DNA of 64,000 nucleotides from Candidatus Bathyarchaeota archaeon (GCA_963772455.1 CAVYXJ010000010.1:256001-320000), one strand, 5' to 3'. Shown: positions 10,323-32,447, numbered from the stretch's first letter. Notes: generated from the letters alone by a model not told the origin. Translations and numbers: made by a program.

Positions 10323-12239
10323 GTGCCGATGGATTTAGAAGGCGTCTTAAAAGTGCAATTGACAAACAGTTGGGAATTCATTAGAAATAGCCGTGCACAA
10401 TTGATCATATGTTCAACTTTTTTGTTTTCTTTTTTGGCTATTTTTATTATTTTTTTTCCACCAAATTTGTGGATTGCTAACATAGTTGGTTTTTTCAGCT
10501 ACTTCACTAATACCTTGGCTTTATTGTTAGCCATTGGATATGTTGGTCTTTTTGTTATTGTCTTTGCTGAAACAGGGTTGTTTTTTGGGTTCTTTTTGCC
10601 TGGTGATAGCTTGCTTTTGGCAGCAGGTATACTTTCGAGTCAAAATCTTTTCAATGTTTTTGGAATTATGGTAGTTGTAATTTTGGCTGCCATAATTGGA
10701 GATAATTTTGGTTATTGGTTTGGGAGAAGGGTTGGTCCAGTGTTTATTAAAAGAGAATCTCGCTTTTTGAATGCACAAAGGGTTGAATCTGTCAGGGTTC
10801 TCTTTGAGAAGCATGGTTCAAAGGCCATTGTTTTTGCGCGTTTTGTACCTATTGCACGAACATTTGCACCTATTCTTGCAGGGGCAAGTAAAATGAAAGT
10901 CTCAAGTTTCTTTTATTATAATGTAGTTGGAGCGTTGCTGTGGGGCATAACTATGCCAATGCTTGGCTACACTTTGGGAAGGGTTATTCCAGATATCCAA
11001 CAATACATTTACCCTATTATCGCTTTAATTATTGTTTTTTCGGTTCTTCCTTGGGTGATCAAACCCATTTCTAGAATTGGAAAGTCTTTTCTTTCTGGGA
11101 GAAAGAAACCCTCAAATGTTTCGTTTGCGTCTGCAGCTAACTCTTCAAGAATTATAAGTAGTGCCGAGGTACGACAAGAGCTAAAAACTCAAAGCAGATC
11201 AAAACGAACCCTGAAGATCGCTATTCAAATCATTGCTATGGCGGCAATTTTTGGGGTACTATTATGGTATGTAGGTGTAGGTTCTCTCTATGACGCCTTG
11301 TTAAACATCAAAGTAGAATACTTGTTTTTGGCGTTCTTGATGTATTTTGGAATTAACGTTTTGTTTACAGTGCGGCTTAGACGTGTTTTAGCTAAAGATG
11401 GCGTCAAAACATCTTTTGGAAAAACACTCTTGGCCCAGTATGCAGGTATGTTAACTAGCGACGTTACTCCCGGACGCTCAGGATATATTCTAACACCGGT
11501 TTATCTTCGAGATCAAAATGTGCCCACATCAAAGGGGCTTTCAAGCATTTTGGGTATTCAAACAATTGAGTTTCTGTTCAAAGTGTTAGGCGGATTGGGT
11601 GCAGTAATTTTCCTAGTAAAAACGGTGCCTACGCAAACATGGAATATGCTATTTCCTCAAACGGTTGCAGGAATCAATATTGGTATATTAATTGCGGGAT
11701 TAGGCATAATTTTGATGCTTGTTGGAGCTATTGTGTTGGCTGCTTTTACCTGGTCTAAAAGGGCTATTACCCTGTTTGATCGGGTTGCAAATTCAAAATA
11801 TCTTAAAAGGTTTACGGGGGGTTTAATGGGTAAACTTGAAGAATACAAAGAAAGCTCCCACAGTACCCGCCGAGCAATCCCGGAAATTATTGGGTTAACA
11901 GTGATATGTTGGATTCTCAAGGGGTTTGAATGGTACTTTTTGGGTTTAGCCTTGGGAATTACAAATGTGCCGTTGATTGCCTATTTTCTTATACATCCGT
12001 TGGTAACGGCGTTAGCGTTTGTTCCTATAACTCCTGCTGGAGCTGGCGTACAAGAATTCGGAATCATCGGAGTTCTTGGTCTTCTAGGCGTTGGGGTTGG
12101 TCCGGCTGGGGTTTTCGCTTTACTTGCTCGCGGTTTACTCATAATTGAAGATCTTATAGGAATACCACAGATCGTTAAATCAACAAGCAATATTTTTTCA
12201 AGCAAACCTGTTTTGGATAATCAGTTGAAAAACGGGTAG
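10323..12239 (+). CDS. DedA/VTT domain fused to a lysylphosphatidylglycerol-synthase-TM (UPF0104 flippase-like) domain
   Basis: FAETGLFFGFFLPGDSLL and ARFVPIART (DedA); VTPGRSG and PITPAGAGVQE (LPG synthase TM family). Confidence 0.85.
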   Translation: MPMDLEGVLKVQLTNSWEFIRNSRAQLIICSTFLFSFLAIFIIFFPPNLWIANIVGFFSYFTNTLALLLAIGYVGLFVIVFAETGLFFGFFLPGDSLLLAAGILSSQNLFNVFGIMVVVILAAIIGDNFGYWFGRRVGPVFIKRESRFLNAQRVESVRVLFEKHGSKAIVFARFVPIARTFAPILAGASKMKVSSFFYYNVVGALLWGITMPMLGYTLGRVIPDIQQYIYPIIALIIVFSVLPWVIKPISRIGKSFLSGRKKPSNVSFASAANSSRIISSAEVRQELKTQSRSKRTLKIAIQIIAMAAIFGVLLWYVGVGSLYDALLNIKVEYLFLAFLMYFGINVLFTVRLRRVLAKDGVKTSFGKTLLAQYAGMLTSDVTPGRSGYILTPVYLRDQNVPTSKGLSSILGIQTIEFLFKVLGGLGAVIFLVKTVPTQTWNMLFPQTVAGINIGILIAGLGIILMLVGAIVLAAFTWSKRAITLFDRVANSKYLKRFTGGLMGKLEEYKESSHSTRRAIPEIIGLTVICWILKGFEWYFLGLALGITNVPLIAYFLIHPLVTALAFVPITPAGAGVQEFGIIGVLGLLGVGVGPAGVFALLARGLLIIEDLIGIPQIVKSTSNIFSSKPVLDNQLKNG

Positions 12240-12970: not shown

Positions 12971-13660
12971 ATGTTCAGCATTGTTACAGCGACATGGAAT
13001 CCAATTTCAGGTTGTCTTTACAACTGCAACTACTGCTGGGCGAAAAACTTGGCGCTAACAAAACTCAAAACTAGCAAAAGATACATTAATGGATTTAAGC
13101 CGAGTTTGAATGACTCAGAATTTAAAGCTAAATTCCACAAAGGCGACCTTATTTTTGTGGCTGACATGGGAGACATGTTCGCCGATTTTACTCCTGAAAA
13201 ATGGATTAAACAAGTATTAGACCATATTAGACAATTTCCCGAAGCAGACTTTCTATTCATGACAAAAAACCCTCAGAGATACCTTGAACTTTTACCTTTT
13301 ATTCCAGATAACGCAATTCTAGGCGCAACTATTGAAACAAACATTGACTCAATTATTACTCAAGACAAAGTGTCGAATGCCCCCCTTCCCAGTGAACGCG
13401 CTAAAGCAATGAAGGCTTTAGATTGGAAAAGAAAAATTGTTTCAGTAGAACCTATCCTTCAGTTTGACCTTGAAATATTTTCTAAATGGATTGAAGATAT
13501 CGACCCATTTATTGTGTATGTAGGTTACGACAATTATTGTCATAAACTGCGTGAGCCTACATTGAAGCAAACAACAGATTTACTCAATACACTGTCAGAC
13601 AATTCACTGGTAATTAGGAAAACCATTCGTCCTTCATGGTCTGAAATGTGCTCTTCATAA
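12971..13660 (+). CDS. DUF5131 (phage Gp37/Gp68-like) radical SAM-type protein
   Basis: TWNPISGCLYNCNYCWA, IFVADMGDMF, FMTKNPQR, GATIE, VSVEPIL. Confidence 0.88.
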   Translation: MFSIVTATWNPISGCLYNCNYCWAKNLALTKLKTSKRYINGFKPSLNDSEFKAKFHKGDLIFVADMGDMFADFTPEKWIKQVLDHIRQFPEADFLFMTKNPQRYLELLPFIPDNAILGATIETNIDSIITQDKVSNAPLPSERAKAMKALDWKRKIVSVEPILQFDLEIFSKWIEDIDPFIVYVGYDNYCHKLREPTLKQTTDLLNTLSDNSLVIRKTIRPSWSEMCSS

Positions 13661-13681: not shown

Positions 13682-14632
13682 ATGCCAGCTAAAATTCCAA
13701 CCTCAGAATGGCTAAAAGATAAACTGAATAGACTGGAAGAAATGACAGAAGTTGTTAAAAAAATTAGCCCTGAATTCTATTCAGAAGTTGACCCAGATTA
13801 TGGCTTTTGGTCTATAAAGAAAGAAATTGCGTTAATGTACTGGTCTTATCCCTTTCAACATATAGCAAAAAACCACTTTGAATCATTCTATTACATTGAC
13901 CTGTTCGCTGGGTCAGGATTAATGAAGGCTGAAAACAGTTTTTTTGTTGGTTCACCTGTTGTCGCTGTAAGCTCAACAATTAAAGATAAAGGATTTAGCA
14001 AATACATCTGCATTGAACAAGCTGAAGATCGAAAAGTAGTCCTTGAAAAACGCCTCAATAAAGCCTGTGAACAACATCAGACATGCGATCCAACGGTGAT
14101 TCAAGGCGACTGTAACAAGGAAATTCTTAACGTGTTAAGGGAACATGCACCTAAAGGAAACACGTGTTTTTTGGCTTTTGTTGATCCACAGAGTTATTCT
14201 CAGTTAAATTGGAGTACTTTAGAGACTTTAATGAGTTATGGAAAAGGCGACATAATCCTAAATTTCCCAACCATGGGACTTACGCGGAATTTGAATAATG
14301 CAGAGTGTAGGCGTTCAATCTCAGCTTTTGTTGGTGATGATTTATGGCCAGAAGAGATTGGGCAACTTAAAATCGATGATTTTTTGGATTATTTCATGAG
14401 CAAGATGAAACGGTTCAGAAGTGAAGTTCATAGTTTAAAGGTTAAAGATGAAAAAAATCACCGATTGTTCGATTTGGTTTTTGCTACAGGTTCGACTGGA
14501 ATGAATAATGCATTAGCTGATTTAACTGAGAAGTTGGATGCATTTAACACTAAAACTATCAAGGGATTGTATTCTGTAGTTGCCAAAGGACAAACTCAAA
14601 TGCAGGATTTTTACAGCCAACAGTTACTTTAA
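13682..14632 (+). CDS. tcmP: Three-Cys-motif partner protein TcmP (SAM-dependent methyltransferase fold)
   Basis: WSIKK, YIDLFAGSG, GSP, GDCN, AFVDP, WSTL, LVFAT; directly downstream of DUF5131. Confidence 0.85.
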   Translation: MPAKIPTSEWLKDKLNRLEEMTEVVKKISPEFYSEVDPDYGFWSIKKEIALMYWSYPFQHIAKNHFESFYYIDLFAGSGLMKAENSFFVGSPVVAVSSTIKDKGFSKYICIEQAEDRKVVLEKRLNKACEQHQTCDPTVIQGDCNKEILNVLREHAPKGNTCFLAFVDPQSYSQLNWSTLETLMSYGKGDIILNFPTMGLTRNLNNAECRRSISAFVGDDLWPEEIGQLKIDDFLDYFMSKMKRFRSEVHSLKVKDEKNHRLFDLVFATGSTGMNNALADLTEKLDAFNTKTIKGLYSVVAKGQTQMQDFYSQQLL

Positions 14633-16887: not shown

Positions 16888-17844
16888 TTACCCAATTTCG
16901 ACAGGTGTACCTCGATAAGCCATTGTGACCTTTTGAAAGAGCTTTACTATGTCTAGTGAGCAGAAAAGCGCTTTTGTTAGGTATTCATGTTGGTAAATCA
17001 TCATCTGTGCCTTCACGGGCAAATCGATTCTGGGTGGCTCAAATTTGCGTGCAACCTCCGCCACCTGCAAGCCATCGATGCCGATGTCTTCCTCGCGCAT
17101 GCCAGTCTTGTTGGCGATGTAGCCAAGGTAGGTTTTTTTCCAGTCCAACATCATTACTTTTGCGGCGACTATGTCCACCGCTAAAGCGTCGTCACCGGTA
17201 AGCATCAAATCCATCTTGACGGGTTTGCCTTTGGTGGGTCCGTTGCCTTCGATGCCGATTCGTGCATCCATTATGGTTAGTTGCGGCTTGAAAAGCGAGT
17301 AGAGTCGGTACATGACTTCAGGCAGGTAGGGGTGAAGGTAGATGCGTTTGTTGCTGGGTACGCAGCCGAAGAGGTTTTTGATGGCGCCGCTGTAAGCCAT
17401 AAACTCATGCGTCTTCATCAAGGGCAAATCCACCACCGCATCGGCGTCCAGCACAGTTTTTGGTAGAAACAGCCGTTTGAGGGGGCAGCCGTCTGGGAAT
17501 TTGACTTCGACGACTTTGTCTTCGGAGAGGTTGATGGCTTTGCCGCCTGCGGATTCCACGGCTTTCTGCATGCCTGTTTTGTCAAACGCGGTCCAGCAAG
17601 GATAGTTAAAGCCGTTGGATTCGCCTACGACAACTTCGCTGTTGCCGTCCCTTAATAGCCCGACGAGTTGATGCATAACCTGTGGGCTTGTTACTACGCC
17701 TGGCAAGTATTCGGGGTGGCTAAGGTTTGGCTTTATGAAAATCTTTCTTTTGCCATGTAACCCTGAGTCGGCGACGGCTTGGGCGACGATGCTGCTTACG
17801 TCGTCTCCTGCACGGTAAATCGTGACTTTGTGTGGGTTAGGCAT
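16888..17844 (-). CDS. DUF362 domain protein
   Basis: IFIKPNL, GVVTSP, LPLMKTH, GAIKNLFG, IEGNGP, D.LAVD motifs. Confidence 0.9.
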   Translation of the reverse strand: MPNPHKVTIYRAGDDVSSIVAQAVADSGLHGKRKIFIKPNLSHPEYLPGVVTSPQVMHQLVGLLRDGNSEVVVGESNGFNYPCWTAFDKTGMQKAVESAGGKAINLSEDKVVEVKFPDGCPLKRLFLPKTVLDADAVVDLPLMKTHEFMAYSGAIKNLFGCVPSNKRIYLHPYLPEVMYRLYSLFKPQLTIMDARIGIEGNGPTKGKPVKMDLMLTGDDALAVDIVAAKVMMLDWKKTYLGYIANKTGMREEDIGIDGLQVAEVARKFEPPRIDLPVKAQMMIYQHEYLTKALFCSLDIVKLFQKVTMAYRGTPVEIG

Positions 17845-19263
17845 GTTTTGACTTCACTCCTTGGAGGCATCCGGGGTCGCCGTTTAACATGTCTCCACTG
17901 TGGTATGCTGCGGAACGTGCTCGGCAGCCGCCGCAGATGAATTTGTAGGTGCATTTGCCGCAGGTACCCTTAAGGTTTGCTCGGTTGCGGAAGGCGTTGA
18001 ACAGCGGCGCGTTTAGCCAGATGTCCTGGAACTTTTCTGTCCTCAGGTTCCCGACGTTCACGGGCAAAAATACACACGGGTGGACATCGCCCTTTGGTGA
18101 GATTGAGCAGTAGAGTCTTCCTGCGCCGCATCCGCCGATGAATTCGCCAAGGGGGACGGCTTTTTTTGTGACTTTGACGGTTTGCATGTGAGCCATTGAC
18201 ATGGTGACTTCGTCTGTTCCCGCTGGACCCTGACATTGCAAGGCGACGCGAGCTAATTGGGGCGCCGTGGCTAGGATGGTTGTTTTGCAGCCCGCTGACA
18301 TCCGATTCAGCAGATAACGCATAACGTCCTCGCGTTCCTGCGGTGAGAGGTCTTGGTCGAAGTGGGCTTTGCCGCGTCCAGTCGGGATAAAATTGAAGTA
18401 GGTGAAGCGTTCCGCATGGATTTTCTCGGCTAAATCGATAATGGCAGGCAGCTCAGCCATGTTGTTCTTACCAACAGTAGTCGCGATGCAGACGCAAAGA
18501 TCCGCTTCAACGCAGTTTTTGAGTCCTGCAATAGCTTTGTCAAAGGTGCCTGGAACCCCGCGGAAGTCATCGTGGGTTTTAGCACAGGCGCCGTCGATGC
18601 TGACGTCGATGTAGTTGACTTTGGCTTCTTTAATTTTAGCTACGTTTTCTTTGGTGAGGAGCGTGCCGTTGGAAGCCAGCGAAACGTAGAGTCCGCGGTC
18701 GGAGGCATGTCGCGCAACTTGGAAGAAGTCTTTGCGCGTGAGAGGTTCTCCTCCCGAGAAAGCCAGAGCCGTCACGTGTGCATCGGCTAATTGATCGACA
18801 ACCGCCAAAGCCTGCTTAGTGGACAACTCCTCTTCCTCCACAGCGCCGCTGTTACTGTAGCAGTGTTTGCACTGTAAGTTGCATTTGTGAGTGAAATCCC
18901 AAACCACCAGAAACGGCGCAGTCAGCGAAATGGGTTTTTTGATGCCAAAATAATCAAATGATTGAACCAAATTTATAACCGCTGCTCGTGCATATCGGTC
19001 AGTTAAGAGTTTCTCGGCTTTCTCACGCTTAAATCCGAGGCCTTTTCGGAGGAACTCTATCCAGAAACCGATAATCTGAGAGTACAAACCGCTGCATTTG
19101 TCGCATTTGCGAGTCGATTTTGCCGCCGTAATCATCCAAAGCTGCTTCAAGGACTGTTCTGCCACATTTGCCGCATTTTTTTAGCGAGAGTTGGAGCATC
19201 TTCTTAGTCATTGGCAGGGAGATGACTGCGTTCCAGAAATGTGTCGTGGCTAAGGATGCTCAT
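17837..19263 (-). CDS. Radical SAM/SPASM protein with N-terminal CxxC pairs (two apparent frameshifts near 19110 and 19250)
   Basis: CNLQCKHC, FSGGEP, GCGAG, HPCVF, CGKC...CGGCRAR; N-terminus KKCGKC...LEAALDDYGGK is in another frame. Confidence 0.85.
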
Positions 19264-19460
19264 TTAGTTTCTCCAATTGTGGCTTTGGTAGTTAATTGGA
19301 TTGTTGGGATGTTAAATATTTCTCTAATCGAGATTCAGATTCAAAAAGCTGCAAAAAGGCAAGTTACTAGAGACGAATGCTTTGCCGAGTGTTTTTGATG
19401 CGTTTTTAGTGCTTTAAAGAGTTCGAGCTTGATAATAGGGGCTATAGGGAAAAAGGAGGT

Positions 19461-20084
19461 TTAGAGCTTCTTTGTTTTCAGCATAATGTTTTGGGCTATT
19501 TCCAGGTCTTTGGTTGTATTGATGTTTAGCAGAACCTCGATTTCTTCTGTGATTATGGCGCTTGTTTCGATTTTGCCTTCGCCGAGGATTTTAGTGCCAT
19601 TTATAATGTTGACTCCTGAAACAGCGTACCAAACTCCCTTGTATTCGTCGGTGGAGGAGATAGATAAGCCCAAATCTTGCCTTGCTTTGATGGGGACAAA
19701 GACCGCCAAGAAATCTTTTCCGCAGACCTCAAAGGCATCGATGATTTTGTCAAGCTCCTGTCCTGTTATGGCTGGAACATCGGAAGGCATAGTGAGTATT
19801 GGGCCAGTCAAATTTGCCTTCGAAACGGCTTGTTTTAGGTCGTTGTGATAACCTTTGGCGTCTGTATGCAGGATCTTCCAGCCTTTTTTTTGGCAGTATT
19901 GTTCGGTTTGCGGGGTGTTCGTGCTTGTTATGACGTAGAACTCGGAAACCTTCTTTGCCTCCAAGATTGCTTCTGCTACCCAATCAATCAGCGGTTTACC
20001 CAGAAACGGCAACAACGGCTTCTCCGTTGACAAACCCATCCTTGAACCTTTTCCGCCAGCCATCACAAGTACAGGAACCTTCAT
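19461..20084 (-). CDS. CobY-like nucleotidyltransferase (paralog 1)
   Basis: VMAGGKGSRMG..EKPLL, PSDVP, GVNII, NINT..DL. Confidence 0.85.
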   Translation of the reverse strand: MKVPVLVMAGGKGSRMGLSTEKPLLPFLGKPLIDWVAEAILEAKKVSEFYVITSTNTPQTEQYCQKKGWKILHTDAKGYHNDLKQAVSKANLTGPILTMPSDVPAITGQELDKIIDAFEVCGKDFLAVFVPIKARQDLGLSISSTDEYKGVWYAVSGVNIINGTKILGEGKIETSAIITEEIEVLLNINTTKDLEIAQNIMLKTKKL

Positions 20085-20941
20085 AGTAGAATCAGCACCA
20101 CCACAACAAACAAAACCAGTACAACTGCCCTTCCAACTTCGTTGGTTGCTCCAATCATGTCGCCCGAAACGCCGCCAAAGACGCTGTTCGAAACTATGTT
20201 CATCACGTACGCCACTGGAATGCTAGCAAACACCAAGGCAATTGCGGCTAGACCAGCTATTGGGTAACCTGAAAAGTAGAAAACTGGGTAAACAATCAAG
20301 GGAGACATTAAGTAGGCTGCGAAGTTGAGTTTCCTTTTGGCTTTCGCAAGAAAAATCGAGCCTAATCCTTTATGGGAGGGTTTGCCGACCCAAACGATTG
20401 TCACCATTGAAAGCTTAGCTGAAACCTCAGCCAAAAATATTACTGAAAAAACAAGAAACAAATTCGTCGTTATGTTCAGTGTTAGCCAGTTAGTTAAGAA
20501 TAAACCTGCAAAAGCTAAAAACTCAACGACTAACGCCAGTACTGCGCCAGCACTTGTGACTGTCCAAGCATGCGCCTTCATTTTTCGATCCTGAACATTT
20601 CTTAAGCCAACAGCGTTTCCTAAATCGATTAAGCCGTCGAAATGCTGTAGTCCAGTTATTACGCTAAGGAAAGCTATGGTCATTGCTGCGGGAATAATGG
20701 CTCCAAAAAGCCCAACGGGCAAAGCTACAAAGCTGTTAGCTAAACCCAAAAGAAAACCAACGATAACGCTTGAGCCGACAAAGTAAGCTGCGCCAAGCAA
20801 ACCGATGAAGCCACCTATGAATGGAAAAAGCCACATGTTTTCTGCCGTCGTGAAAATGAAATCTTCTTTCCTCCCAACCGGAATTATGGTGAGGAAAGAC
20901 AGCAAATCCCTAAAAGTTTTTATAGTTTTCACAGGCGACAT
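20081..20941 (-). CDS. CobS-like membrane phosphotransferase (divergent paralog 1)
   Basis: LSFLTIIP, FPFIG, TGLQHFDGLIDLGN, GGVSGDMIGATNE; ATG 20941 chosen as start. Confidence 0.82.
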   Translation of the reverse strand: MSPVKTIKTFRDLLSFLTIIPVGRKEDFIFTTAENMWLFPFIGGFIGLLGAAYFVGSSVIVGFLLGLANSFVALPVGLFGAIIPAAMTIAFLSVITGLQHFDGLIDLGNAVGLRNVQDRKMKAHAWTVTSAGAVLALVVEFLAFAGLFLTNWLTLNITTNLFLVFSVIFLAEVSAKLSMVTIVWVGKPSHKGLGSIFLAKAKRKLNFAAYLMSPLIVYPVFYFSGYPIAGLAAIALVFASIPVAYVMNIVSNSVFGGVSGDMIGATNEVGRAVVLVLFVVVVLILL

Positions 20942-20989
20942 ATACCTACAACCTTCCCAATAGGGAATATAGACTTTGTCGTGACTTGG

Positions 20990-21919
20990 ATGGCTGACTT
21001 GAAAGGGAAAAAAGTGTTCGTTACTGGTGGAGCAGGTTTTATAGGCTACCACCTTTGCAATAAACTGTCAACTCTCACTGATGATTTGACGATTTACGAT
21101 AACTTATCAAGCGGTAAAATGGAAAATGTCAAAGACAATCCTAAAGCCAAATTCGTTGAAGGCGATATTTTAGACGTTAAAAAACTCTGCAGTCAACCAA
21201 AGTCAGACTTGATTTACCATTTAGCTGCACAAGTAGTTGTTCCTTACTCGATGGAGAATCCGTTGATAGATTTTGAAATTAACGCCAAAGGAACCCTTTG
21301 TGTTCTTGAGAAAGCGCGAAAAGACGATGCGAAACTGGTTTTTGCCTCAAGCGCCGCAATCTACGGCAACCCAACACAGTTGCCAACCTCCGAAGATTAC
21401 GGTTTCCATCCATTCTCATGCTACGGATTATCAAAGGTTGTGGGCGAAGAATACTGCCAAATGTACCGTGAACAATACGGTTTAGACATTGTAATCACAA
21501 GGTTCGCCAACGTTTATGGACTAAGATGCCACGGCGTTATCCATGACTTTCTCGAGAAACTCGCTAAAAACCCAAACAAACTCGAAATCATAGGCACCGG
21601 GCAACAATCACGCGATTTGGTGCACGTCTCCGATGTTGTGGATTTGCTGGCTAAAGTTGGCTCACTTGAATCTGCCAACGGACAAACATACAACGTAGGT
21701 CTTGGCAAAACAACAAAGATAATCGATTTAGCTAAACTGATGCTTCAGATTCTCAACCTTCAAGATAAAACCGTCGTAACAACCACCGGTGTGTCTTGGC
21801 AGGGCGACATCGTCACCATATGGTTTAACAATCAAAAAGCCAGAAAAGAATTGAATTGGAATCCAAAGGTCACTTTAGAAGAAAGCATAAAAGAAGTCAT
21901 CGCCGCGAGGAAACTCTAG
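20990..21919 (+). CDS. NAD-dependent epimerase/dehydratase (GalE-like)
   Basis: VTGGAGFIG, HLAAQ, SSAAIYG, YGLSK. Confidence 0.92.
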   Translation: MADLKGKKVFVTGGAGFIGYHLCNKLSTLTDDLTIYDNLSSGKMENVKDNPKAKFVEGDILDVKKLCSQPKSDLIYHLAAQVVVPYSMENPLIDFEINAKGTLCVLEKARKDDAKLVFASSAAIYGNPTQLPTSEDYGFHPFSCYGLSKVVGEEYCQMYREQYGLDIVITRFANVYGLRCHGVIHDFLEKLAKNPNKLEIIGTGQQSRDLVHVSDVVDLLAKVGSLESANGQTYNVGLGKTTKIIDLAKLMLQILNLQDKTVVTTTGVSWQGDIVTIWFNNQKARKELNWNPKVTLEESIKEVIAARKL

Positions 21920-21921
21920 AA

Positions 21922-22797
21922 ATGACCGCTGCCGCGCCAGCGAAAGGATTAATCGCTCTTCTGCGGCTTCCCTACTGGCTCATGACTGGCGGGTTATCAG
22001 TTTTAACAGCTTTTGCAATCACAAAAACCATGATTGCTCCCCAAACAATCCTGCTTATTTTCTTCTCTATGGCGTTCATAACCTCTGCTGGCTTTGCCAT
22101 AAACGATTATTTCGACCGAGAAAGTGATGCGGTAATCAAGCCAAAACGCCCTATTCCTTCAGGAGCATTATCGCTTAAACAAGTAGTGGCTGTTTCAAGC
22201 ATACTCTTCGCTTTAGGATTAGTTATGGCAGCTTTGATTAATTGGCTTAGTTTCGCGATCATCGCCGTTGATTCGCTGTTGCTGCTGGTTTATTCTTACA
22301 TGGTGAAGCGCAAGTCTGGTTTTGTTGCTAACATTTTGGTCGGCATTCTAACAGGAACGGCGTTCATGTATGGGCAAGCCACAATAACCAATCCTGCAAT
22401 TGTGAATTTGGTTTCGTTAAGCTTGTACCCAATAGCTTTTGGCACCATCGGCGGTAACGTGCTTCGGGACATCTTGAGCGTGGAAGGCGACTCCAAAGTT
22501 GGATACCCAACCCTGCCCCAGAAAATCGGCAACATAAGCGCAGCCAAAGTCGGCGCTCTATTTTTCCTCTTGACAGGTATACTTGCACCCCTTCCATATT
22601 TCATAGGAAATTTTACTTTCTACTATCTGCCGCTAATTCTGCTCTGGAGTGTCCTGTTAATCTACGCTTCAATTCGACTAGTAACATCATGTTCAACCGT
22701 TCAGAACGTCCGCAAGTATGAACGCATAGTTACAATGTCGATGATTCTGCTGCCTCTGGCTTTGATAGTTGAAGCTGTGCTTGGATGGTTGATATGA
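21922..22797 (+). CDS. UbiA prenyltransferase, DGGGP synthase-like
   Basis: INDYFDRESDAVIKPKRPIPSG and RDILSVEGD..VGYPTLP motifs. Confidence 0.88.
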   Translation: MTAAAPAKGLIALLRLPYWLMTGGLSVLTAFAITKTMIAPQTILLIFFSMAFITSAGFAINDYFDRESDAVIKPKRPIPSGALSLKQVVAVSSILFALGLVMAALINWLSFAIIAVDSLLLLVYSYMVKRKSGFVANILVGILTGTAFMYGQATITNPAIVNLVSLSLYPIAFGTIGGNVLRDILSVEGDSKVGYPTLPQKIGNISAAKVGALFFLLTGILAPLPYFIGNFTFYYLPLILLWSVLLIYASIRLVTSCSTVQNVRKYERIVTMSMILLPLALIVEAVLGWLI

Positions 22798-24261
22798 GCG
22801 AAACCAAAAGTATCTGCCCTGACTGCCAAAAGAAAATAGATGCTCAACTCTCTCAAACCAATGGCAAAATCCAAATCACAAAACAATGCCCTGAACATGG
22901 CGAATTCAAAGCAACCCATTGGCAAAGCGTGCCAATATACAATCACATGCAAAAATACGATCAGTACCAGTACCTTGGCGACTTGAACGCGCCAAAAAAC
23001 CCTGATGGGTGCCCTTACAAATGCGAAACTTGTACTGAACATGCTTCTGGAACAGTGATTGGCGTCATTGACGTAACCAAACGTTGCAACTTTAAATGTG
23101 CAGTATGTTTTTCAACTTTTCCAGATCAAGAAGGGGATTATGAACCCACCAAAGAAGCACTCGTAAACATGCTCAAGTTCGCAAGCAAAGCTAACCCTAA
23201 ACCCCCAGCAATTCTATTCTCAGGCGGTGAACCCCTTGAACGCGAAGACATGCCTGAAATCATAGCCGCTGCGCATAAACTGAAATTCATGACTATCTTG
23301 GCGACAAACGGGACACATTTGGTGGATACGCCGGGATTAGCCAAGAGGCTCAAAGACAGCGGCTTAAACATAGTTTATTTATCGTTTGACAGTTTTCATG
23401 AAGAGTTCAACAGAAAGGTTAGAGGACGAGAGCTTCTTAGACATGAAACTTAAGGCTATAGACGTTTGCCGCAAATACGACATGGAAATAATCCTCGTTA
23501 ACACCTTGATGAAGAGTCTTAACGACAAAGAAGTAGGCGACATGATCCGATTCGCCGCCAAAAACACTGACATAGTCCGAGGTTTAATTTTTCAACCTAT
23601 CGCCTTTACAGGCAGAGCAACAGAGAATCCATTCCGCGAGAACTTTCGTGAATGGTCTTTTGCTGAGGATGTGGAAAGCCAAACTCAAGGCGAAATAAAA
23701 TCCACTGATTTGTATCCTATGTCCGTTATGACTTCGCCGATTAAAATAATGCGTAAGTTCATGCAGAAACCTTGGCCATTGTTCTCATGCAGCCCGCAGT
23801 GCGGAATTGTCAATTGGGTTTACGTTTCTAAAAGCGGCAAAATGTTTCCAATCAACCGCTTCGTAAACTTTGACCGCTTTTTCAATAGTATTCGCAAAAC
23901 TGCTGAAAACGCAGAGTCAAAAGGTAAAATTTCCTTGCTATCCTCACTTTTCATGGCTTCTATGTTGTCAATGGATATGTTCTTAGTTACCAAAGAAGTC
24001 GGTATGCCAACTCTGATGAAGTCAATTATGAAAATGCATCTTTCGCCATCTTATCAGTCGCTGGGTAAAATCCGTCGCAGAATATTCCTGTTGGGCTGCA
24101 TGGCGTTCATGGATTCTTACAACTTTGACGTTAATCGTGTCCGACGATGCGTAGTGCACTACATCACGCCAGATCTTAAAATAATTCCATTCTGCGCCTA
24201 CAACAACGTCCATCGAGTCGCCATCGAGAAAGCATATGCCCAAAGACACAAGAAAGCTTAA
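22794..24261 (+). CDS. tes: Tetraether synthase (Tes/GDGT-MAS)-like radical SAM protein (frameshift near 23439)
   Basis: CPDC...CPEHG, GCPYKCETCTEH, IDVTKRCNFKCAVCF, FMDSYNFDVNRVRRCVVHY, IIPFCAYN; ATGA overlap with UbiA. Confidence 0.8.
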
Positions 24262-24308: not shown

Positions 24309-24818
24309 TTAGCTTATCACACTAATTTTTAGAACGCAGGAATTTGGAGTTAAAACCAAGACGCCGTTTTTCATTTGCCAAAGTTCAAATTCAACTGAGT
24401 AGTCGCCAACCTGATTAAGAGTGATTGATGCTGAGTCTTGCCAAGTTTCCCCATCCTTCAAACTTAAATCATAAGTCTTGGTCGGCTGTGTACCTGGAAA
24501 ATTTGGAGAAATTTTTGATTGAACTTGATACGTTTGGGTGTCTGTGCCTCCCATGTGATTTACAACATTAACGTATACGATGAAGGTGTTATTCTGGTTA
24601 ACAACAAGAGTAGAAGGAAAGTCAACGGCTTTTTTCTGGGCATCAAGCAAATAAATTGTGTTATAGGGCTCTGCTTGTGGTCTGAATACTACATAATAAC
24701 CTATGACTGTGGCGGAAACAATGATTAAAGCAAGAAAAATAGCAACAGCGAAGCCTTTCTCTTCATCTAAACCGATTTTTCTTCCAATTCTCTTGACACT
24801 TTCGAATTGTATCCGCAT
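24309..24818 (-). CDS. DUF1616-like membrane-anchored protein
   Basis: One TM, then EPYNTIYLL, VNVVNHMG, VEFELW. Confidence 0.7.
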   Translation of the reverse strand: MRIQFESVKRIGRKIGLDEEKGFAVAIFLALIIVSATVIGYYVVFRPQAEPYNTIYLLDAQKKAVDFPSTLVVNQNNTFIVYVNVVNHMGGTDTQTYQVQSKISPNFPGTQPTKTYDLSLKDGETWQDSASITLNQVGDYSVEFELWQMKNGVLVLTPNSCVLKISVIS

Positions 24819-25509
24819 CCAAAAGCCCCTTAAAGATAGTGCTAAATATCTGAATCCCAGACTTAAATGGTTTAAGCTTGGTTTTCCCATATTCTCGGTG
24901 CTTATAAGTTGTTGGAACTTCCACCATTGTGTAACCTTCTTTAGCGAATTGAATCAGCATTTCGGTGGCAAATGCCATGTCATCCTCTTTTAGTTTTACT
25001 TTGTCTATAGCTTCATGGGATATTGCCCGGAAGCCAGATTGTGAATCACTTAAGAATTGGCTGTAGCAGAAGTCAAAGCAGAAAGTGATTACTTTGTTGC
25101 CTAAAAAGTTGAAGAAACCCATGGCTTTTTTCGGATCATACATGCGTGTGCCCAAAACCATGTCTACATCTTTCGTAATCATATGGTCTATTAAGCGGTT
25201 TATGTGTTTGAACTCGTAAGTGCCGTCTGCGTCAACCATGATAATGATGTTGCCTTTCGCGTTCTTCATTCCAGTTCGCAATGCAACTCCGTAGCCGCGT
25301 CTGGGTTCAATAATTAATCTGCAAAAATCAGTATCCTTTACAATTTCAATAGTTCCATCAGTTGAATTGCTATCTACTACAATTATTTCTTTGGGGTAAT
25401 GTACATTGTTATTGATAGTGGTAACAGCTTCCAATATGGTGCCAGCTTCGTTTAGTGTTGGAATGATGACTGAAACTAGATCAACTTTAGATGTCATGGT
25501 AAACCCCAT
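24763..25509 (-). CDS. Glycosyltransferase family 2 (DPM1-like)
   Basis: VIIPTLNE, VVDSNSTDGT, GYG, DADG, DSQSGFRA. Confidence 0.92.
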   Translation of the reverse strand: MGFTMTSKVDLVSVIIPTLNEAGTILEAVTTINNNVHYPKEIIVVDSNSTDGTIEIVKDTDFCRLIIEPRRGYGVALRTGMKNAKGNIIIMVDADGTYEFKHINRLIDHMITKDVDMVLGTRMYDPKKAMGFFNFLGNKVITFCFDFCYSQFLSDSQSGFRAISHEAIDKVKLKEDDMAFATEMLIQFAKEGYTMVEVPTTYKHREYGKTKLKPFKSGIQIFSTIFKGLLDADTIRKCQENWKKNRFR

Positions 25510-25539
25510 TTGCTAAGGCTAATAGATGCGCTAGTCTGG

Positions 25540-26697
25540 TTAAATAAGCTCTTCGTATATTTTGACAAGTGAATCAACATTCCTATCCCAGCTATGTTTC
25601 TCTTCCATCATCGCTCGAATCTTGGGTGTGCGTGAAGACAAATCCATCTTTGAGTAATCTACAATTGCCTCTGCCAGTTGCTCTGGCATGTTAGGAGGAA
25701 CCAATTTTCCATACTCCTCAGTTAATATTTCCCCGATTCCACCCACATCCGTTGCTACTACAGGCAATCCACAGGCCATGGCTTCTTCGGCAACCAAAGG
25801 TAAGCCTTCACCAGATTTCGATGGCACCACAAAAAAGTCTGCAGTATTATAGTAAAAGGGTAAATCGTTACTTGAGACAAAACCAGCAAAAATAACATTT
25901 TTCTCTATTCCCAGCTGTTTTATCCTTTCTTGGGCGTTGTCTTTGTTTGGACCTATTCCAACAATTAGAAAAGTGATGTTTGGGTTCTTTTTAACTGCAA
26001 TGTTCGCAGCTTCAATTAGAGTATCGATGCCGTTTTTGTAAACAATTCTTCTGACTGTTAAAACAACAATTGCGTTTTGGGAAATTCCCAATTTCTTCCT
26101 CATTTCTTCTCGCTTGCCAGCGATGGGGCGAAAATGCTCCAAGTCTACGCCGTTATGCATTACGATGACTTTCTTTGGATCCGCGCCCAAACTTAAAACA
26201 TAATTTTTGGTTGCATTGCTTACGGTGATTATTTTGTCTGCTAGTTTAAGCGTTTGCCTTCCAACTGCAAGGTCATTTAGACGTTCTACGGTTTCAAACA
26301 TGTTGTCATATTCGATGAATGTGTTATGTTGGGTTAGGACAAAGGGTTTCGAGTACCGTTTAGCCAGTTTTCCCATTATAAGCGAAGTAAGATATGGGTG
26401 GCCATGTGCATGCACTATATCACATGATTGTACAGCGTTGAGGAAAGTTTCAAGACTTGCCACGGAAGGAATAGTGTAAGGTATCCCAAGTCGATATCCT
26501 GTGTTCAACGATTCATAACAATCAACTTTTACTCCTTTTATGACGTAGCTTTTGGGAGTATTCATCCTGTTTGTAACTACAAATGGATCATAGTTTCTGT
26601 TGAGTAGACGTCTGCTTTGTTCATAAACAACGGTTTGTATTCCGCCCACCTGCGGCAGGTAGATGTTTGTGACAATACACAGACGTGTTTTAGCCAT
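25540..26697 (-). CDS. Glycosyltransferase family 4
   Basis: PQVGG, HNGVD, EGLPLVAEEAMACGLPVV. Confidence 0.92.
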   Translation of the reverse strand: MAKTRLCIVTNIYLPQVGGIQTVVYEQSRRLLNRNYDPFVVTNRMNTPKSYVIKGVKVDCYESLNTGYRLGIPYTIPSVASLETFLNAVQSCDIVHAHGHPYLTSLIMGKLAKRYSKPFVLTQHNTFIEYDNMFETVERLNDLAVGRQTLKLADKIITVSNATKNYVLSLGADPKKVIVMHNGVDLEHFRPIAGKREEMRKKLGISQNAIVVLTVRRIVYKNGIDTLIEAANIAVKKNPNITFLIVGIGPNKDNAQERIKQLGIEKNVIFAGFVSSNDLPFYYNTADFFVVPSKSGEGLPLVAEEAMACGLPVVATDVGGIGEILTEEYGKLVPPNMPEQLAEAIVDYSKMDLSSRTPKIRAMMEEKHSWDRNVDSLVKIYEELI

Positions 26698-26757: not shown

Positions 26758-27738
26758 TTATTGAACTAAACCTTGAGTTGCGTATGGTACCGCATTAGTA
26801 AACGGTGTCCAGGCGTTAAAACATGTATTATCCACATTCAAATTTTTGACAGCGGAAATTAATTCAAAAATTCCTTCATCTAAAGACACTTTAGCACGGT
26901 AACCCAAAGTCTCTATTTTAAGTGTTGAAAGAATGTAATTTCGCTTATCCCAATGATAATCCGATTCTGCTACATGCAAATCGTAATCAACTTGTTTTTT
27001 TATTCGTTGAGCAATTTGTTCTTTTGTAAACGTTAACCTTGATGAACCAACATTGAAAATTTCACCCTCCATCGATTTTCTGTTGTTAATCGCAAACAAT
27101 ATGCTCCTTGAAATATCGCGAACGTGAATCACGGACCTAATTGATCTTTCGCCGTAAACCATCAGGGCTTTGTGTTTGACGGCTTCATACACAAACTGAT
27201 TAACCAACAGATCCAGCCGCATCCGATACGAAACTCCAAATGCAGTGGCAAACCTAAGAGTAACAACGTTTTTTCTTTCAGAAAATATTTTTTCAGCTTC
27301 AAATTTGGTTCTTGCATAGTGTGATTGCGGAGTGGGTACCCTTTTCTCTGTACAATCTAACCCATTAAGTACGCCATATACGCTTCCTGTGGAAGCAAAA
27401 ATTAGAAGTTGATCATCGGACAAATACCTGTTTATTTTTCTGGAGGCATTAACATTTACGTCAGTTGCCTGTTCCCTGTTGCCTTCACACAAAGGTTCAC
27501 CAACAATCGCCGCCAGATGCACCACGACATCTTTATTTTCGATAAGAGTTTTGATTAATTTATCATCCCTAACATCTCCTTTAACGAACTCAAACCCACG
27601 TTTGCCCACATTAACACAAATCCCTTGCATCCCCCAGGTTAAATTGTCCAGAACAGTTACTTCATGTCCTTCTTTGAGTAGCTCAGGGACAAGCGTAGAA
27701 CCAATGAAGCCTGCACCTCCAGTAACAAGAATTCTCAT
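26758..27738 (-). CDS. NAD-dependent epimerase/dehydratase
   Basis: VTGGAGFIG, HLAAIVG, YARTK, RLDLLVN. Confidence 0.9.
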   Translation of the reverse strand: MRILVTGGAGFIGSTLVPELLKEGHEVTVLDNLTWGMQGICVNVGKRGFEFVKGDVRDDKLIKTLIENKDVVVHLAAIVGEPLCEGNREQATDVNVNASRKINRYLSDDQLLIFASTGSVYGVLNGLDCTEKRVPTPQSHYARTKFEAEKIFSERKNVVTLRFATAFGVSYRMRLDLLVNQFVYEAVKHKALMVYGERSIRSVIHVRDISRSILFAINNRKSMEGEIFNVGSSRLTFTKEQIAQRIKKQVDYDLHVAESDYHWDKRNYILSTLKIETLGYRAKVSLDEGIFELISAVKNLNVDNTCFNAWTPFTNAVPYATQGLVQ

Positions 27739-27899
27739 CTCAACACCTGGTCAATTTATAGCAAGGTTAAGGTTTTAATGACTTTTCGTACACAACTCTT
27801 GACTAAACTTAGTCCATTTTTCTTGACTGACAAAATCATATTTGCAAACAATAAAACAAGGTGAACCTTGAAGTTGAAATTCCAAGAAAAATTGTTTTT

Positions 27900-29012
27900 T
27901 TACCAACCAGCTTTAACTGTTCCAATTATGTATTTCAAATCTTCTAAAGTTAAATCCTCATGAATGGGCAAGCAGATAAAATCTCTATCAATTCTATCTG
28001 TATTAGGCAAATCTGTTCTTTGTTGACCAAAAATTGAGAACACATCATTTCTGTAACTCTGCACGTTCAACTCTATGCCTTTAATGCGCATGGTTTCTAA
28101 GAATTTTTGTCTCCGCTCAACATGAATTGGATAGAGGAAATAGGCACTTTTGCTGTCCGCCCTATATTCCATAAGCTTAACCCCCCTTATCCCTTGCAGT
28201 TCCTCATCATAGATTTTGGCTTTTTCACTTCGTTGAGCCAAGATTCTATCGACATAGCTGAGCTGCTCTCTGCCAATGGCGGCAAGAAAACTATTCATCC
28301 TCATCTTATAACCGACCTCAATGATGTCTTGCGTATATGCTCCGGTTAATGCATCTCTTTTTTGACGATCCATCCCAAACCAGGATCTCCTATTAGCCGC
28401 TTGAAAAATACTCTCGCTATTGGTAGCCAACATGCCTCCATCTCCAGTTGTTATGTGTTTAACCGCGGCAAAAGAGTAACAAGCAAACGAAGAGTTGCAG
28501 CCTATGAAGTTGTCTTGGTAAGTTGCGCCGATTGCGTGGGCACAATCTTCAATTAACGCTAAATTATGCGTTTGGGCTATTTCTCTGAGTTCGGTTAGGT
28601 CACATGGATATCCTAAGTTATGTACACAAATGATTGCTTTGGTTTTTTTTGTGATTCTTTTTTCAATATCTGAAACGTCGATATTTGCGGTTTCATAGTT
28701 AACATCCACAAAGATTGGCGAAGCGAACTGTTCAAGAATTGAAGTGTTGGTGGCAACCATAGTGAAGGCTGGAGATATTACCTCGTCGCCTGGTCCCACG
28801 CCTGCAATAGCAAGGGATAATCTTAGCGCTGAAGTGCAGGAATTCAGTGCTACAGCAAATTTAACGTTGAATTTTTCCGCGAAAGCTTTCTCAAATAAGG
28901 TTGTTTCTATTCCAACATTGAGCCATTTGCCTTGTAAGGTTTTTGACGCTACATCAATTACGCTCTGTGGCATATGTGAACTGAAAATGTTGATTTTTCT
29001 TTGCGGTGCCAT
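27900..29012 (-). CDS. DegT/DnrJ/EryC1/StrS sugar aminotransferase
   Basis: NSCTSAL, IEDCAHA, SFAAVKHITTGDGG. Confidence 0.93.
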   Translation of the reverse strand: MAPQRKINIFSSHMPQSVIDVASKTLQGKWLNVGIETTLFEKAFAEKFNVKFAVALNSCTSALRLSLAIAGVGPGDEVISPAFTMVATNTSILEQFASPIFVDVNYETANIDVSDIEKRITKKTKAIICVHNLGYPCDLTELREIAQTHNLALIEDCAHAIGATYQDNFIGCNSSFACYSFAAVKHITTGDGGMLATNSESIFQAANRRSWFGMDRQKRDALTGAYTQDIIEVGYKMRMNSFLAAIGREQLSYVDRILAQRSEKAKIYDEELQGIRGVKLMEYRADSKSAYFLYPIHVERRQKFLETMRIKGIELNVQSYRNDVFSIFGQQRTDLPNTDRIDRDFICLPIHEDLTLEDLKYIIGTVKAGW

Positions 29013-29097: not shown

Positions 29098-29580
29098 TTA
29101 CGGTTTAGCTTGCTTACCTTTCAGTGCATTTGTATAAACATTCGAAGATGCTCCAGCCACCAATGCGCCAATTGCATCATTTGTCAGGGGAGGCAACTTC
29201 TTAAGGATGCCAGGTTTAGCCTGATCAAATCGAACGAACTCAAACATAGCTCTTGATCCTCCAATGTATGTGGCGATGGCTATGCCAATAAGTTCATCTG
29301 CGACAAGACCGGGTCTGCCCAAAAATCTCTCTTTTGATAACCCTGGGATTCGCCCGTTTTCAGCTTCTTCTTGGGCAAGGAAAGCGGCAACAATGAGGGT
29401 TGAAACGTTTACATCTGTTAAGATGTCAAGGAATTCATCTTTAAGCAATTCGATGGCCTTTTCTTGTGTTTCTACACCTGGGTGGGGAACGTACATTTCA
29501 AGTGCGCTCTCGATTAGGCTTTGCAATGTGATGCCTTTGCCTTCTAAGTAAGTTAACAATGGCGGGTTTTGCTTATTCAT
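29098..29580 (-). CDS. cobZ: Alpha-ribazole-phosphate phosphatase CobZ (PgpA-like)
   Basis: DVNV, LVADELIG..IA.YIGG, FEFVRFDQAKPGIL; next to cobT/cobS/cobY. Confidence 0.78.
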   Translation of the reverse strand: MNKQNPPLLTYLEGKGITLQSLIESALEMYVPHPGVETQEKAIELLKDEFLDILTDVNVSTLIVAAFLAQEEAENGRIPGLSKERFLGRPGLVADELIGIAIATYIGGSRAMFEFVRFDQAKPGILKKLPPLTNDAIGALVAGASSNVYTNALKGKQAKP

Positions 29581-29884: not shown

Positions 29885-30556
29885 ATGAAAGTTGTTGCTT
29901 CATGGAGCGGCGGAAAAGACAGTGCTTATGCATATTATTTGGCAACCCAGCAAGGCCATCAAGTAATCAACACTTTTACTATGATGATGAGTGAATCTAA
30001 ATCAAACTTCCACATGATACCATCAGGAATCTTGGATTTGCAAGCCGAATCCATCGGGATTCCATTAATCAAAAAAACCACTTCTCCGCAGAATTATGAG
30101 AAAGACTTCAAAGAGGTCCTAATGCAGTGCAAAGCAAAAGGTGCAGAAGGCTTAGTCACAGGCGACATTTACGAAGTCGCTGGACACGAAGAAGGCTGGC
30201 TTGGACGAGTCTGCAAAGAAATCGGTTTAACACCCGTAAAACCATTATGGATGGGCGATACAAAACAAATTTACCTTGAATACCTCAAAACAGGATTCAA
30301 AGCAACAGTTGTACGCACAAAATTGGATAAGCTTGGAATAGATTGGCTTGGAAAAGTGCTGGACCGAAAATTCTACGATGACATCTTAAAACTCGGCAAC
30401 GTTGACCCCTGCGGCGAAGGCGGCGAATACCACACCGTAATCACCGACGGACCCACCTTTAAGAAAAAGATTGAAATTGAGGAAACACAGAAACATAAGC
30501 TTGAAGGCGGCTTTGGATACTTGGAAATAAAAAAATTCAAAGCAGTGCCCAAGTAA
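29885..30556 (+). CDS. Diphthine-ammonia ligase (Dph6)-like PP-loop ATPase
   Basis: SWSGGKDS, TGDI, PLW, DPCGEGGEYHT. Confidence 0.88.
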   Translation: MKVVASWSGGKDSAYAYYLATQQGHQVINTFTMMMSESKSNFHMIPSGILDLQAESIGIPLIKKTTSPQNYEKDFKEVLMQCKAKGAEGLVTGDIYEVAGHEEGWLGRVCKEIGLTPVKPLWMGDTKQIYLEYLKTGFKATVVRTKLDKLGIDWLGKVLDRKFYDDILKLGNVDPCGEGGEYHTVITDGPTFKKKIEIEETQKHKLEGGFGYLEIKKFKAVPK

Positions 30557-31663: not shown

Positions 31664-32447
31664 TTGGTTGTTAAAGAGCTAAAGAATCTTTTTTCTTTCT
31701 TAACCGTTTTCCCAGTTGCCATGGACAAAGACTTACTTACGGACTGCGCACGAAACATGTGGGCTTTCCCATTAATCGGTGCTTTTCTTGGGTTACTAGC
31801 TGGCTTGTTCGGGTGGGTGGCATACCAGTTCTTGCCTGGTCTTGTTGTCGGCGCTTTGACGTTGGCTCTACTTCTATGGATGACTGGATTGCATCATACG
31901 GATGGGCTGTTGGACTTTGGCGACGGCATAATGGTGCATGGTTCCGCTGAACGTAAAATTGAAGTTATGCATGACCAGTTGACAGGTGCAGGCGCCATTG
32001 GACTGACTTTTATGACCTACATTATCACTGCTTTCGCATTTGCTGAACTCGGCAGGACTATAGTTCATTGGGAGTTTAGCATTACCCTTAATTTTTCCCG
32101 CTTTAATTGTGATTGAGTTATGCGCAAAATTGTCGATGGTTATAGTTGCTCGGGCAGGAAAATCTGTTCATCAAGGCATGAACTCACCGTTTCTGGAAGC
32201 CATGCATGGAAGCAAGGGCAATTTGCGTTTGGTTGCAGCAATACTGATTTCTTTAGCGATTGCTTTGCCACTTTTGCATTGGGCAGGAGTCTTCACCATT
32301 CTGGCAGGCTTAATAACGGGATTAGTGATGGTTGCAGTTGCACATAAACACTTTAAAGGCGTTACAGGCGACGTTTTTGGAGCCACTAACGAGTTGGCGC
32401 GGATGATTTGCGCCGTTGTTTTGTTGGCGGTAATTGCATGGGTATAG
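31664..32447 (+). CDS. cobS: Cobamide synthase CobS (frameshift near 32070)
   Basis: SFLTVFP, GLHHTDGLLDFGDG, MHDQLTGAG, GVTGDVFGATNE across two frames. Confidence 0.87.

Follow-up and report, generated by a model that had tools for sequence, protein, structure and literature searches.

Within a 64,000-nucleotide stretch of the genome of Candidatus Bathyarchaeota archaeon (GCA_963772455.1, CAVYXJ010000010.1:256001-320000), hereafter the window, we analysed a cluster of seven genes between positions 16,888 and 24,261, for which an original prediction had proposed a tetraether-lipid modification pathway with a repurposed CobY/CobS pair. All seven genes were recovered (Table 1). They are arranged in two divergent arms: one consists of a sugar epimerase, a UbiA prenyltransferase and a homologue of the radical SAM enzyme Tes, the other of a CobS-like and a CobY-like gene, followed by a radical SAM/SPASM enzyme and a DUF362 protein. 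The gap between the arms, predicted to be about 50 bp, measures 48 bp, and the suspected tight coupling of the first arm was borne out, as 2 nt separate the epimerase stop from the UbiA start and the UbiA and Tes-like genes overlap by 13 nt. In the second arm, the CobS-like and CobY-like genes overlap by 4 nt, and a 325-bp gap lies between the CobY-like and SPASM genes. The open reading frame (ORF) of the SPASM enzyme extends to a GTG at 19165, with the alignment of relatives beginning at about residue 14; the CobS-like ORF is open to 21052 (upstream GTG), yet its homologues begin at MSPVK. The separate canonical cobZ/cobT/cobS/cobY cluster, expected about 10 kb off, was found 8-10 kb away. 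The enzymes are of known kinds, in an undescribed arrangement that is conserved in two families of one order of Bathyarchaeia. We refer to the epimerase, UbiA and Tes-like genes, flanked by glycosyltransferase (GT) genes of types GT4 and GT2 and by a DUF1616 gene, as module A. Module B comprises the CobS-like and CobY-type genes, a CobD-type gene, a small membrane protein, three further glycosyltransferases, DUF362 and SPASM. In the following, G000 denotes the source genome and Cn its contigs; f and g numbers stand for families and genera, and L numbers for fetched loci.

Table 1. Features of the cluster and its surroundings (positions in the window).
Feature	Position	Strand	Basis and remarks
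DUF362 protein	16888-17844	-	Pfam PF04015, 170 bits; adjoins SPASM gene in f1, f7 and G494
Radical SAM/SPASM enzyme, AhbD/NirJ-like	17837-19135	-	Pfam Radical_SAM + SPASM; AhbD 302 bits (cut-off 500), NirJ 256 bits (cut-off 515)
CobY-like nucleotidyltransferase (NTP_transf_3)	19461-20084	-	Full-length match to M. jannaschii CobY
CobS-like membrane protein, motif HxDxxxDxxN	20081-20941	-	Pfam CobS 94.6 bits; TIGR00317 101.5 bits (cut-off 110)
Divergent intergenic region	20942-20989	.	Sequence reading
NAD-dependent sugar epimerase/dehydratase, GalE-like	20990-21919	+	Pfam Epimerase 181.8 bits; GalE 162.8 bits (cut-off 262)
Second UbiA prenyltransferase, DGGGPS-like	21922-22797	+	NF009523 178.9 bits (cut-off 269); NF009521 170.8 bits (cut-off 296)
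Second Tes homologue (radical SAM)	22785-24261	+	Halves 206.4 + 248.6 bits to NF045702
DUF1616 membrane protein, AglJ-like GT2, GT4	24309-26697	-	Pfam, NCBIfam; flank module A
GT4' glycosyltransferase, outer gene of module B	239-1435	+	Pfam Glycos_transf_1/Glyco_transf_4
Terminase large subunit	2093-3553		Low-GC stretch
P-type ATPase in three pieces	4923-6667		Low-GC stretch
DedA + flippase-like fusion	10323-12239		Low-GC stretch
DUF5131	12971-13660		Low-GC stretch
TcmP-like	13682-14632		Low-GC stretch
Second epimerase and DegT-type aminotransferase	26758-29012
CobZ	29098-29580	-	NCBIfam, Pfam; canonical cobamide cluster
DUF71/Dph6-like	29885-30556		NCBIfam, Pfam; canonical cobamide cluster
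CobT	30568-31656		NCBIfam, Pfam; canonical cobamide cluster
CobS (split)	31664-32447		Canonical cobamide cluster
CobY (split)	~32438-33053		Canonical cobamide cluster

To assess conservation across Bathyarchaeia, 40 loci around CobS-like matches were compared, of which 19 belong to the genus of the source genome, 12 to further genera of family f1 and nine to genus g16 (Ca. Bathyarchaeum) of family f7. In all 40 loci, the CobS-like gene has UbiA, Tes-like and CobY-type genes next to it, and the epimerase is present in 36, being missing from L056, L057, L058 and L062. Given this recurrence of the core, the arrangement is not due to chance. The neighbourhood is conserved in both families with differing gene order and strand: the two arms are divergent in the f1 loci, while in f7 the five genes are co-directional, 2-5 kb of variable genes lie between the Tes and CobS-like genes, and the SPASM-side block is inverted. 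Orthologues from the two families are 42-48% identical. In a sample of 401 genomes of the class (thresholds E<=5e-35 for CobS-like and E<=3e-77 for Tes-like), a CobS-like gene was detected in 77 genomes plus one partial and a Tes-like gene in 78; both occurred in 75-76 genomes and neither in 321, counts which, covering close kin and physically linked genes, represent few independent events. The CobS-like gene stood alone in two genomes, at contig ends, and the Tes-like gene in two to three fragmented assemblies. The genera g7 and g17 are among the relatives without the island.

The UbiA and Tes-like genes of module A are extra paralogues. Housekeeping counterparts of both, whose presence elsewhere in the genome had to be checked, were found in the source genome, namely Tes at C10:13.6-15.1 kb (37% identical to the cluster copy; 550+115 bits to NF045702 in two frames) and UbiA on C11 (30% identical to the cluster copy; 242.6 bits to NF009523 and 181.6 bits to NF009521). 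In the phylogenetic trees, one branch divides 37 cluster rows of Tes from 20 housekeeping rows, and one branch likewise divides 39 cluster rows of UbiA from 30 housekeeping rows, each with a value of 100 in the Shimodaira-Hasegawa-like approximate likelihood ratio test (SH-aLRT), so that the cluster copies form clades of their own. The split sequences L022, L023, L034 and L041 were left out of the Tes tree, and L022 (split) and L042 (duplicate) out of the UbiA tree.

The cluster Tes homologue resembles Tes/GDGT-MAS (M. jannaschii MJ0619, 7TOL, NF045702) over its full length. It combines the Pfam Radical_SAM core with an N-terminal zinc ribbon (Zn_ribbon_HMPTM); the f7 orthologue matches 7TOL with 426 bits over query residues 10-494, and intact cluster-type orthologues score 462.1, 492.6 and 496.3 bits to NF045702, above the family cut-off of 450. 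Its separate clade and lower score (462-496 versus about 665 bits) set it apart from the housekeeping Tes that the same genomes encode, and it is always translationally coupled to the second UbiA gene. Intact orthologues of both genes are present in, for example, L024 and L045. For the cluster UbiA (Pfam UbiA, 120.9 bits), the best solved relative is DGGGPS (6M31, 113.8 bits; chlorophyll synthase, 51.6 bits); aligned to 6M31, it shows both Asp-rich motifs, and its best NCBIfam families are DGGGPS-type. In contrast to DGGGPS proper, it is 27-32% identical to housekeeping copies, scores below the equivalog cut-offs and stands in a separate clade. Judged from these matches, prenyl-ether formation followed by radical tail-to-tail coupling is a well-grounded prediction for the chemistry of module A.

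In the source genome, the Tes-like gene consists of two overlapping ORFs (22785-23453 and 23386-24261), since an extra T near position 23433 splits its frame. A DNA alignment of 19 sequences showed that this base is absent from all 18 aligned relatives, each of which has one continuous frame, and relatives' contigs from two public sequencing runs likewise lack it. A conserved programmed frameshift or split Tes, as suggested by overlapping tblastn pieces in relatives, is ruled out by this continuous frame. Further split frames were encountered in the canonical cobS and cobY (two frames each), the housekeeping Tes, the P-type ATPase and an amidohydrolase (sites: window 31664-33053, L041, L133:1254-2835 and window 4923-6667), cobS being intact in relatives. 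Hence, either the assembly is indel-prone or the genome carries pseudogenes. In the latter case the module would be decaying in this genome, the frameshifts of the Tes-like gene, canonical cobS and cobY reflecting real pseudogenisation, and both the uniqueness of the extra base among the 19 aligned sequences and the several further split genes would fit such decay. However, the splits also affect unrelated genes that look essential, among them the housekeeping Tes, as expected of an indel-prone assembly, and other assemblies (L022, L023, L034) are split at different sites of the same genes, which makes indel errors the likelier cause. The source strain was not found among public runs, the best of which contained just 0.33 of the sampled words. 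We regard decay of the module as unlikely.

The CobS-like protein shares 33-34% identity with the canonical CobS encoded in the same genome. The original prediction had left it to a tree whether the copy would form its own clade: among 188 rows, the 40 locus rows and five representatives form one CobS-like clade (SH-aLRT 99) that is not nested among canonical CobS, and 23 of the 24 canonical Bathyarchaeia rows are placed elsewhere with other representatives. The 24th, an f7 copy, branches separately; this canonical CobS of Ca. Bathyarchaeum (L085, G040 C1:430850-431950) lies 47 kb from the island and, judging by its position apart from other Bathyarchaeia CobS, may be of separate origin. An exhaustive search of 1.84 billion representatives with the CobS-like protein returned just 15 clusters at E<=1e-30, and a search of the ESM Atlas yielded nothing but generic CobS clusters.

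A comparison of 143 canonical with 45 CobS-like rows revealed a distinct residue pattern. The third Asp of the HxDxxxDxxD motif is Asp in 143/143 canonical rows and Asn in 45/45 CobS-like rows; the Asp of the MHD motif (99% of canonical rows) is replaced by Ala in 71% of the CobS-like rows and a Gly invariant in canonical rows (100%) by Thr in 84%. AHxWxVT stands in place of MHD..TG, and the CobS-like rows have an additional hydrophobic segment of about 19 residues. Retained are the His and first two Asp of loop 2, E172, K176, the loop-6 motif GxxGDxxG (G257, G260, D261, G264), N267-E268 and R271, and according to a hydropathy scan the protein looks like a polytopic membrane protein. It matches the Pfam family CobS and is always accompanied by a following CobY-type gene, but it coexists with canonical CobS and falls below the TIGR00317 cut-off, as do its relatives (68-98 bits), in contrast to the canonical copies in four of five genomes (140-176 bits). 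For the Salmonella enzyme, excerpts of a published study report that D82A, D86A, D89A and D229A each abolish function, and that its authors suggested loop 2 to contact the corrinoid substrate (PMC8092220). Since the paralogue fails one defining CobS feature while most of the catalytic frame is kept, its sequence pattern is the one expected for a changed substrate, not for decay. Most likely, the enzyme would still form a phosphodiester from a donor activated with guanosine diphosphate (GDP), with its substrate changed.

Its partner, the CobY-like protein, aligns with M. jannaschii CobY (3RSB/2MZB) over the full length (residues 5-203, E ~1e-19), and the nucleotide-binding motifs, including GGKGxRMG, are kept. 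In the CobY tree, the CobY-like clade (27 f1, nine f7 and ten metagenomic rows) is sister to the canonical clade, i.e. to the CobY adjoining canonical CobS in Bathyarchaeia. The source genome and its genus have both types, while several relatives possess the CobY-like type as their sole CobY.

Both modules are part of a wider island. A block kept in f1, f7 and genome G494 contains the CobD-type enzyme, which is of the pyridoxal phosphate type, and the small membrane protein; divergent from these are three glycosyltransferase genes (GT2', GT2'' and GT4'), with which the DUF362 and SPASM genes are convergent. In the source genome the block extends from C10:252.8 kb across the border of the window, and an insert of about 15 kb with a low guanine-cytosine (GC) content lies between its GT4' gene, which shares 42% identity with the GT4' of f7, and DUF362; in relatives, GT4' directly adjoins DUF362. 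At the opposite flank, the DUF1616, GT2 and GT4 genes come after the Tes-like gene, an association conserved in f1, while in f7 the same genes lie next to the epimerase. In total, the island encodes six glycosyltransferases, DUF1616 and other membrane proteins, with all glycosyltransferase matches lying under the family cut-offs. The SPASM enzyme is likewise below all NCBIfam cut-offs. DUF362 belongs to the same Pfam clan as DUF2088, the N-terminal domain of the nickel-pincer lactate racemase LarA, as stated in an excerpt of PMC11770544.

But, what could such an island produce? Tentatively, we propose an accessory pathway for a membrane-spanning (glyco)lipid, in which the CobS paralogue adds a phosphodiester-linked group, a reading that appears quite possible to us, if somewhat short of probable. 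Homology, paralogy, separate clades, motif change, synteny and co-occurrence were observed directly; from these we infer all substrates, the product and the joining of modules A and B into one pathway. In module A, UbiA would most likely form a prenyl ether and the Tes homologue would join isoprenoid tails by a C-C bond. The resulting lipid would then probably receive sugar head groups, which the glycosyltransferases and the epimerase fit. Module B would supply a GDP-activated phospho-alcohol, and the CobS paralogue would link this donor by a phosphodiester to a hydroxyl of the membrane-bound (glyco)lipid instead of to alpha-ribazole phosphate. We place the paralogue in a lipid pathway because inversions have not separated it from module A in two families that diverged deeply, whereas the canonical CobS of f7 is found 47 kb away. 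The logic is that of the Kennedy pathway, of IPCT/DIPPS and of the teichoic acid enzymes acting on glycerol or ribitol activated with cytidine diphosphate (CDP-glycerol/CDP-ribitol), in which a soluble enzyme activates a phospho-alcohol as a nucleoside diphosphate derivative, after which a membrane enzyme passes it on to a hydroxyl, yielding a phosphodiester. In this comparison, the CobS-family membrane enzyme differs in being non-homologous to its counterparts, and the nucleotide is probably GDP.

A number of observations weigh against this pathway. First, the CobY-like gene is the sole CobY-family gene in G347 (97% complete), G040 (97%), G229 (92%) and G494 (69%). As it is there the only CobY-family gene beside a canonical-type CobS match (full in G347, G040 and G229, partial in G494), it probably still makes adenosylcobinamide-GDP in these genomes. 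Second, in four genomes of the same genus (L032, L037, L038 and L039 of G008, G017, G018 and G006), a recent copy of canonical CobY adjoins the CobS-like gene, which looks like a recent paralogue replacement and makes the two CobY types appear interchangeable. Third, a metagenomic lineage (P0134 type, 16 contigs) carries CobS-like, CobY-like and canonical CobS genes in one string, with a CbiB or DUF71 gene nearby and without UbiA, Tes or epimerase within flanks of up to 9 kb. Fourth, G494 has module B and a housekeeping Tes as its only Tes. Fifth, f7 shows no strong CobD match other than the CobD-type gene of module B, while the source genome and its genus possess a pair each of CobD and CbiB genes, the second CbiB lying near module B in some genomes. 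Finally, a canonical-type CobS match is present in nearly every genome with a CobS-like gene. This context suggests that the CobS paralogue arose within a cobamide loop-assembly cluster and that its CobY partner still makes adenosylcobinamide-GDP in many genomes. The predicted repurposed and redundant CobY/CobS pair is only partly supported: the CobS-like protein forms its own clade and has lost an essential residue, but the CobY-like protein, as sole CobY in the four genomes named above, is not generally redundant. The pair also occurs without UbiA and Tes in the metagenomic lineage and in G494, and it is a member of the wider CobD-containing module.

A genome of the P0134-type lineage was not found: a sample of 401 genomes of the order (E<=1e-60) returned only the 47%-identical G494, and a sample of 401 genomes of the phylum (E<=1e-45) only three f7 genomes (41-44% identity). 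Some contigs of this type carry, immediately upstream, GT4 and DUF1616 genes and one for a B12-binding radical SAM protein.

On account of the cobamide context, we keep a cobamide-related role of the CobS paralogue as a strong rival explanation. The enzyme might take adenosylcobinamide-GDP made by the shared CobY and join it to a different acceptor, or it might form another kind of cobamide, and the lipid genes would be mere neighbours, kept by ancestry or by the cobamide need of the nearby B12-dependent radical SAM enzymes. This would account for the operon with canonical CobS in the metagenomic lineage, the CobY-like gene as sole CobY in f7 and g24, the canonical CobY copy beside the CobS-like gene in four genomes, the second CobD and in some genomes the second CbiB within the module, the B12-binding radical SAM genes adjoining it, the retention of most invariant CobS residues, and the observation that in f1 and f7 possession of any cobS nearly coincides with the island. 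It is less easily reconciled with the Asn that replaces the third Asp in all 45 rows, the matching D89A variant being null in Salmonella (excerpts of PMC8092220). In addition, the 401-genome class sample contained no case in which canonical CobS was lost in favour of the paralogue. The pair moreover adjoins UbiA and Tes through inversions in two families despite the modest identity of their orthologues, and in f7 the CobS-like gene lies within 2-5 kb of Tes, at a distance from the canonical CobS. Weighing both sides, we consider a purely cobamide-related role somewhat unlikely, though to be taken seriously.

B12-binding radical SAM genes adjoin the module in several relatives and in L107/L108. 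In the source genome, the region just upstream of module B (L133, G000 C10:236001-256000) contains three such genes, all below family cut-offs, along with a second, more divergent CbiB (227 bits versus 298 for the copy on C5), a double AsnC/NirDL-like protein and a class I methyltransferase.

The many glycosyltransferases bring up another explanation, a cell-surface glycan island for a polyprenyl/dolichol-type carrier or S-layer N-glycans. UbiA and Tes would serve to synthesise or modify this carrier, with the CobS paralogue decorating a sugar with a phospho-alcohol in the manner of teichoic-acid or phosphocholine decoration systems. The GT2 genes are AglJ-like (162-166 bits to TIGR04182, below cut-off), the GT4 genes resemble BshA, MshA and Agl16, and DUF1616, the GalE-like epimerase and, in the source genome, a DegT aminotransferase would be at home in such an island; a sugar hydroxyl is, moreover, the natural acceptor in the CobS reaction. 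Tes homologues, however, are known solely for joining membrane-lipid chains tail to tail, and the cluster copy scores above the Tes cut-off, while the glycosyltransferase matches all stay below theirs and no oligosaccharyltransferase was seen in the loci scanned. We deem a glycan island improbable.

The cobamide context also allows for a combination of both pathways, in which the CobS paralogue would join adenosylcobinamide-GDP to a dedicated membrane-spanning (glyco)lipid, at one of its hydroxyls, and so create a membrane-anchored corrinoid. The shared enzymes CobD, CbiB and CobY would provide the donor, while the second copies of UbiA and Tes together with the glycosyltransferases would build the lipid. 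Heme O/A and chlorophyll bear prenyl tails installed by UbiA enzymes; no prenyl- or lipid-anchored cobamide is known, and this idea is highly speculative and the most improbable of all.

Returning to the accessory (glyco)lipid pathway, the island suggests a product not yet described, either a membrane lipid or a molecule linked to a lipid. In the open-access papers searched, we found no description of the cluster and none combining CobS/CobY with archaeal lipids or UbiA. Tetraethers of Bathyarchaeia serve as sediment biomarkers and the genes modifying them are only now emerging; a lineage-restricted second DGGGPS/Tes pair is a concrete candidate source of unexplained lipids. Butanetriol tetraethers (BDGTs) are assigned to a Bathyarchaeia genus in an excerpted passage of a review (PMC12694404), and extended tetraethers of unresolved source are reported from Bathyarchaeota-rich sediments in excerpts of PMC13003381, where Methanomassiliicoccus also figures as a BDGT producer. 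Both lipid types are candidate products, with nothing tying the cluster to either. The CobS-like protein as a general need of BDGT producers such as Methanomassiliicoccus was rejected, because its clade has no close members outside these lineages among the 1.84 billion representatives. Independently of lipids, a CobS-family enzyme that lacks an essential Asp and is nevertheless strictly conserved would indicate that the chemistry of cobamide loop assembly was adapted to another reaction, and CobS annotations in these genomes would then over-call cobamide synthesis. According to excerpts of two reports (bioRxiv 10.1101/2025.10.20.683597; PMC11214058), Tes, Gms, Ted and Hgs were each identified through heterologous expression, and the cluster is directly testable in the expression systems already in use for Tes and its modifiers.

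Some further features of the window deserve mention. In one RNA library from peat, contigs overlap parts of the DUF362/SPASM genes, the epimerase and the 3' end of the Tes-like gene, which is not proof of transcription; the gaps are uninformative. A comparison of the whole window with Rfam gave no family at the gathering score and thus no cobalamin riboswitch, and ARAGORN found no transfer RNA in it. The DUF71/Dph6-like ATP pyrophosphatase paralogue of the canonical cobamide cluster (142.7 bits, under the Dph6 cut-off of 197.3) has counterparts near cob genes both among relatives and in the metagenomic lineage; a comparative study of 2012 predicted that one subgroup of DUF71 acts in B12 salvage, as excerpted from PMC3541065. 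The second epimerase and the DegT-type aminotransferase are located between GT4 and CobZ in the source genome, and neither had a match of at least 40% identity in the 19 same-genus loci, where GT4 adjoins CobZ. Between about 1500 and 16800, the GC content drops to 0.37 compared to 0.44-0.48 in the surroundings, and this stretch, which carries the terminase gene and separates GT4' from DUF362, adjacent to each other in relatives, resembles a mobile element that has integrated, or the remnant of a provirus.

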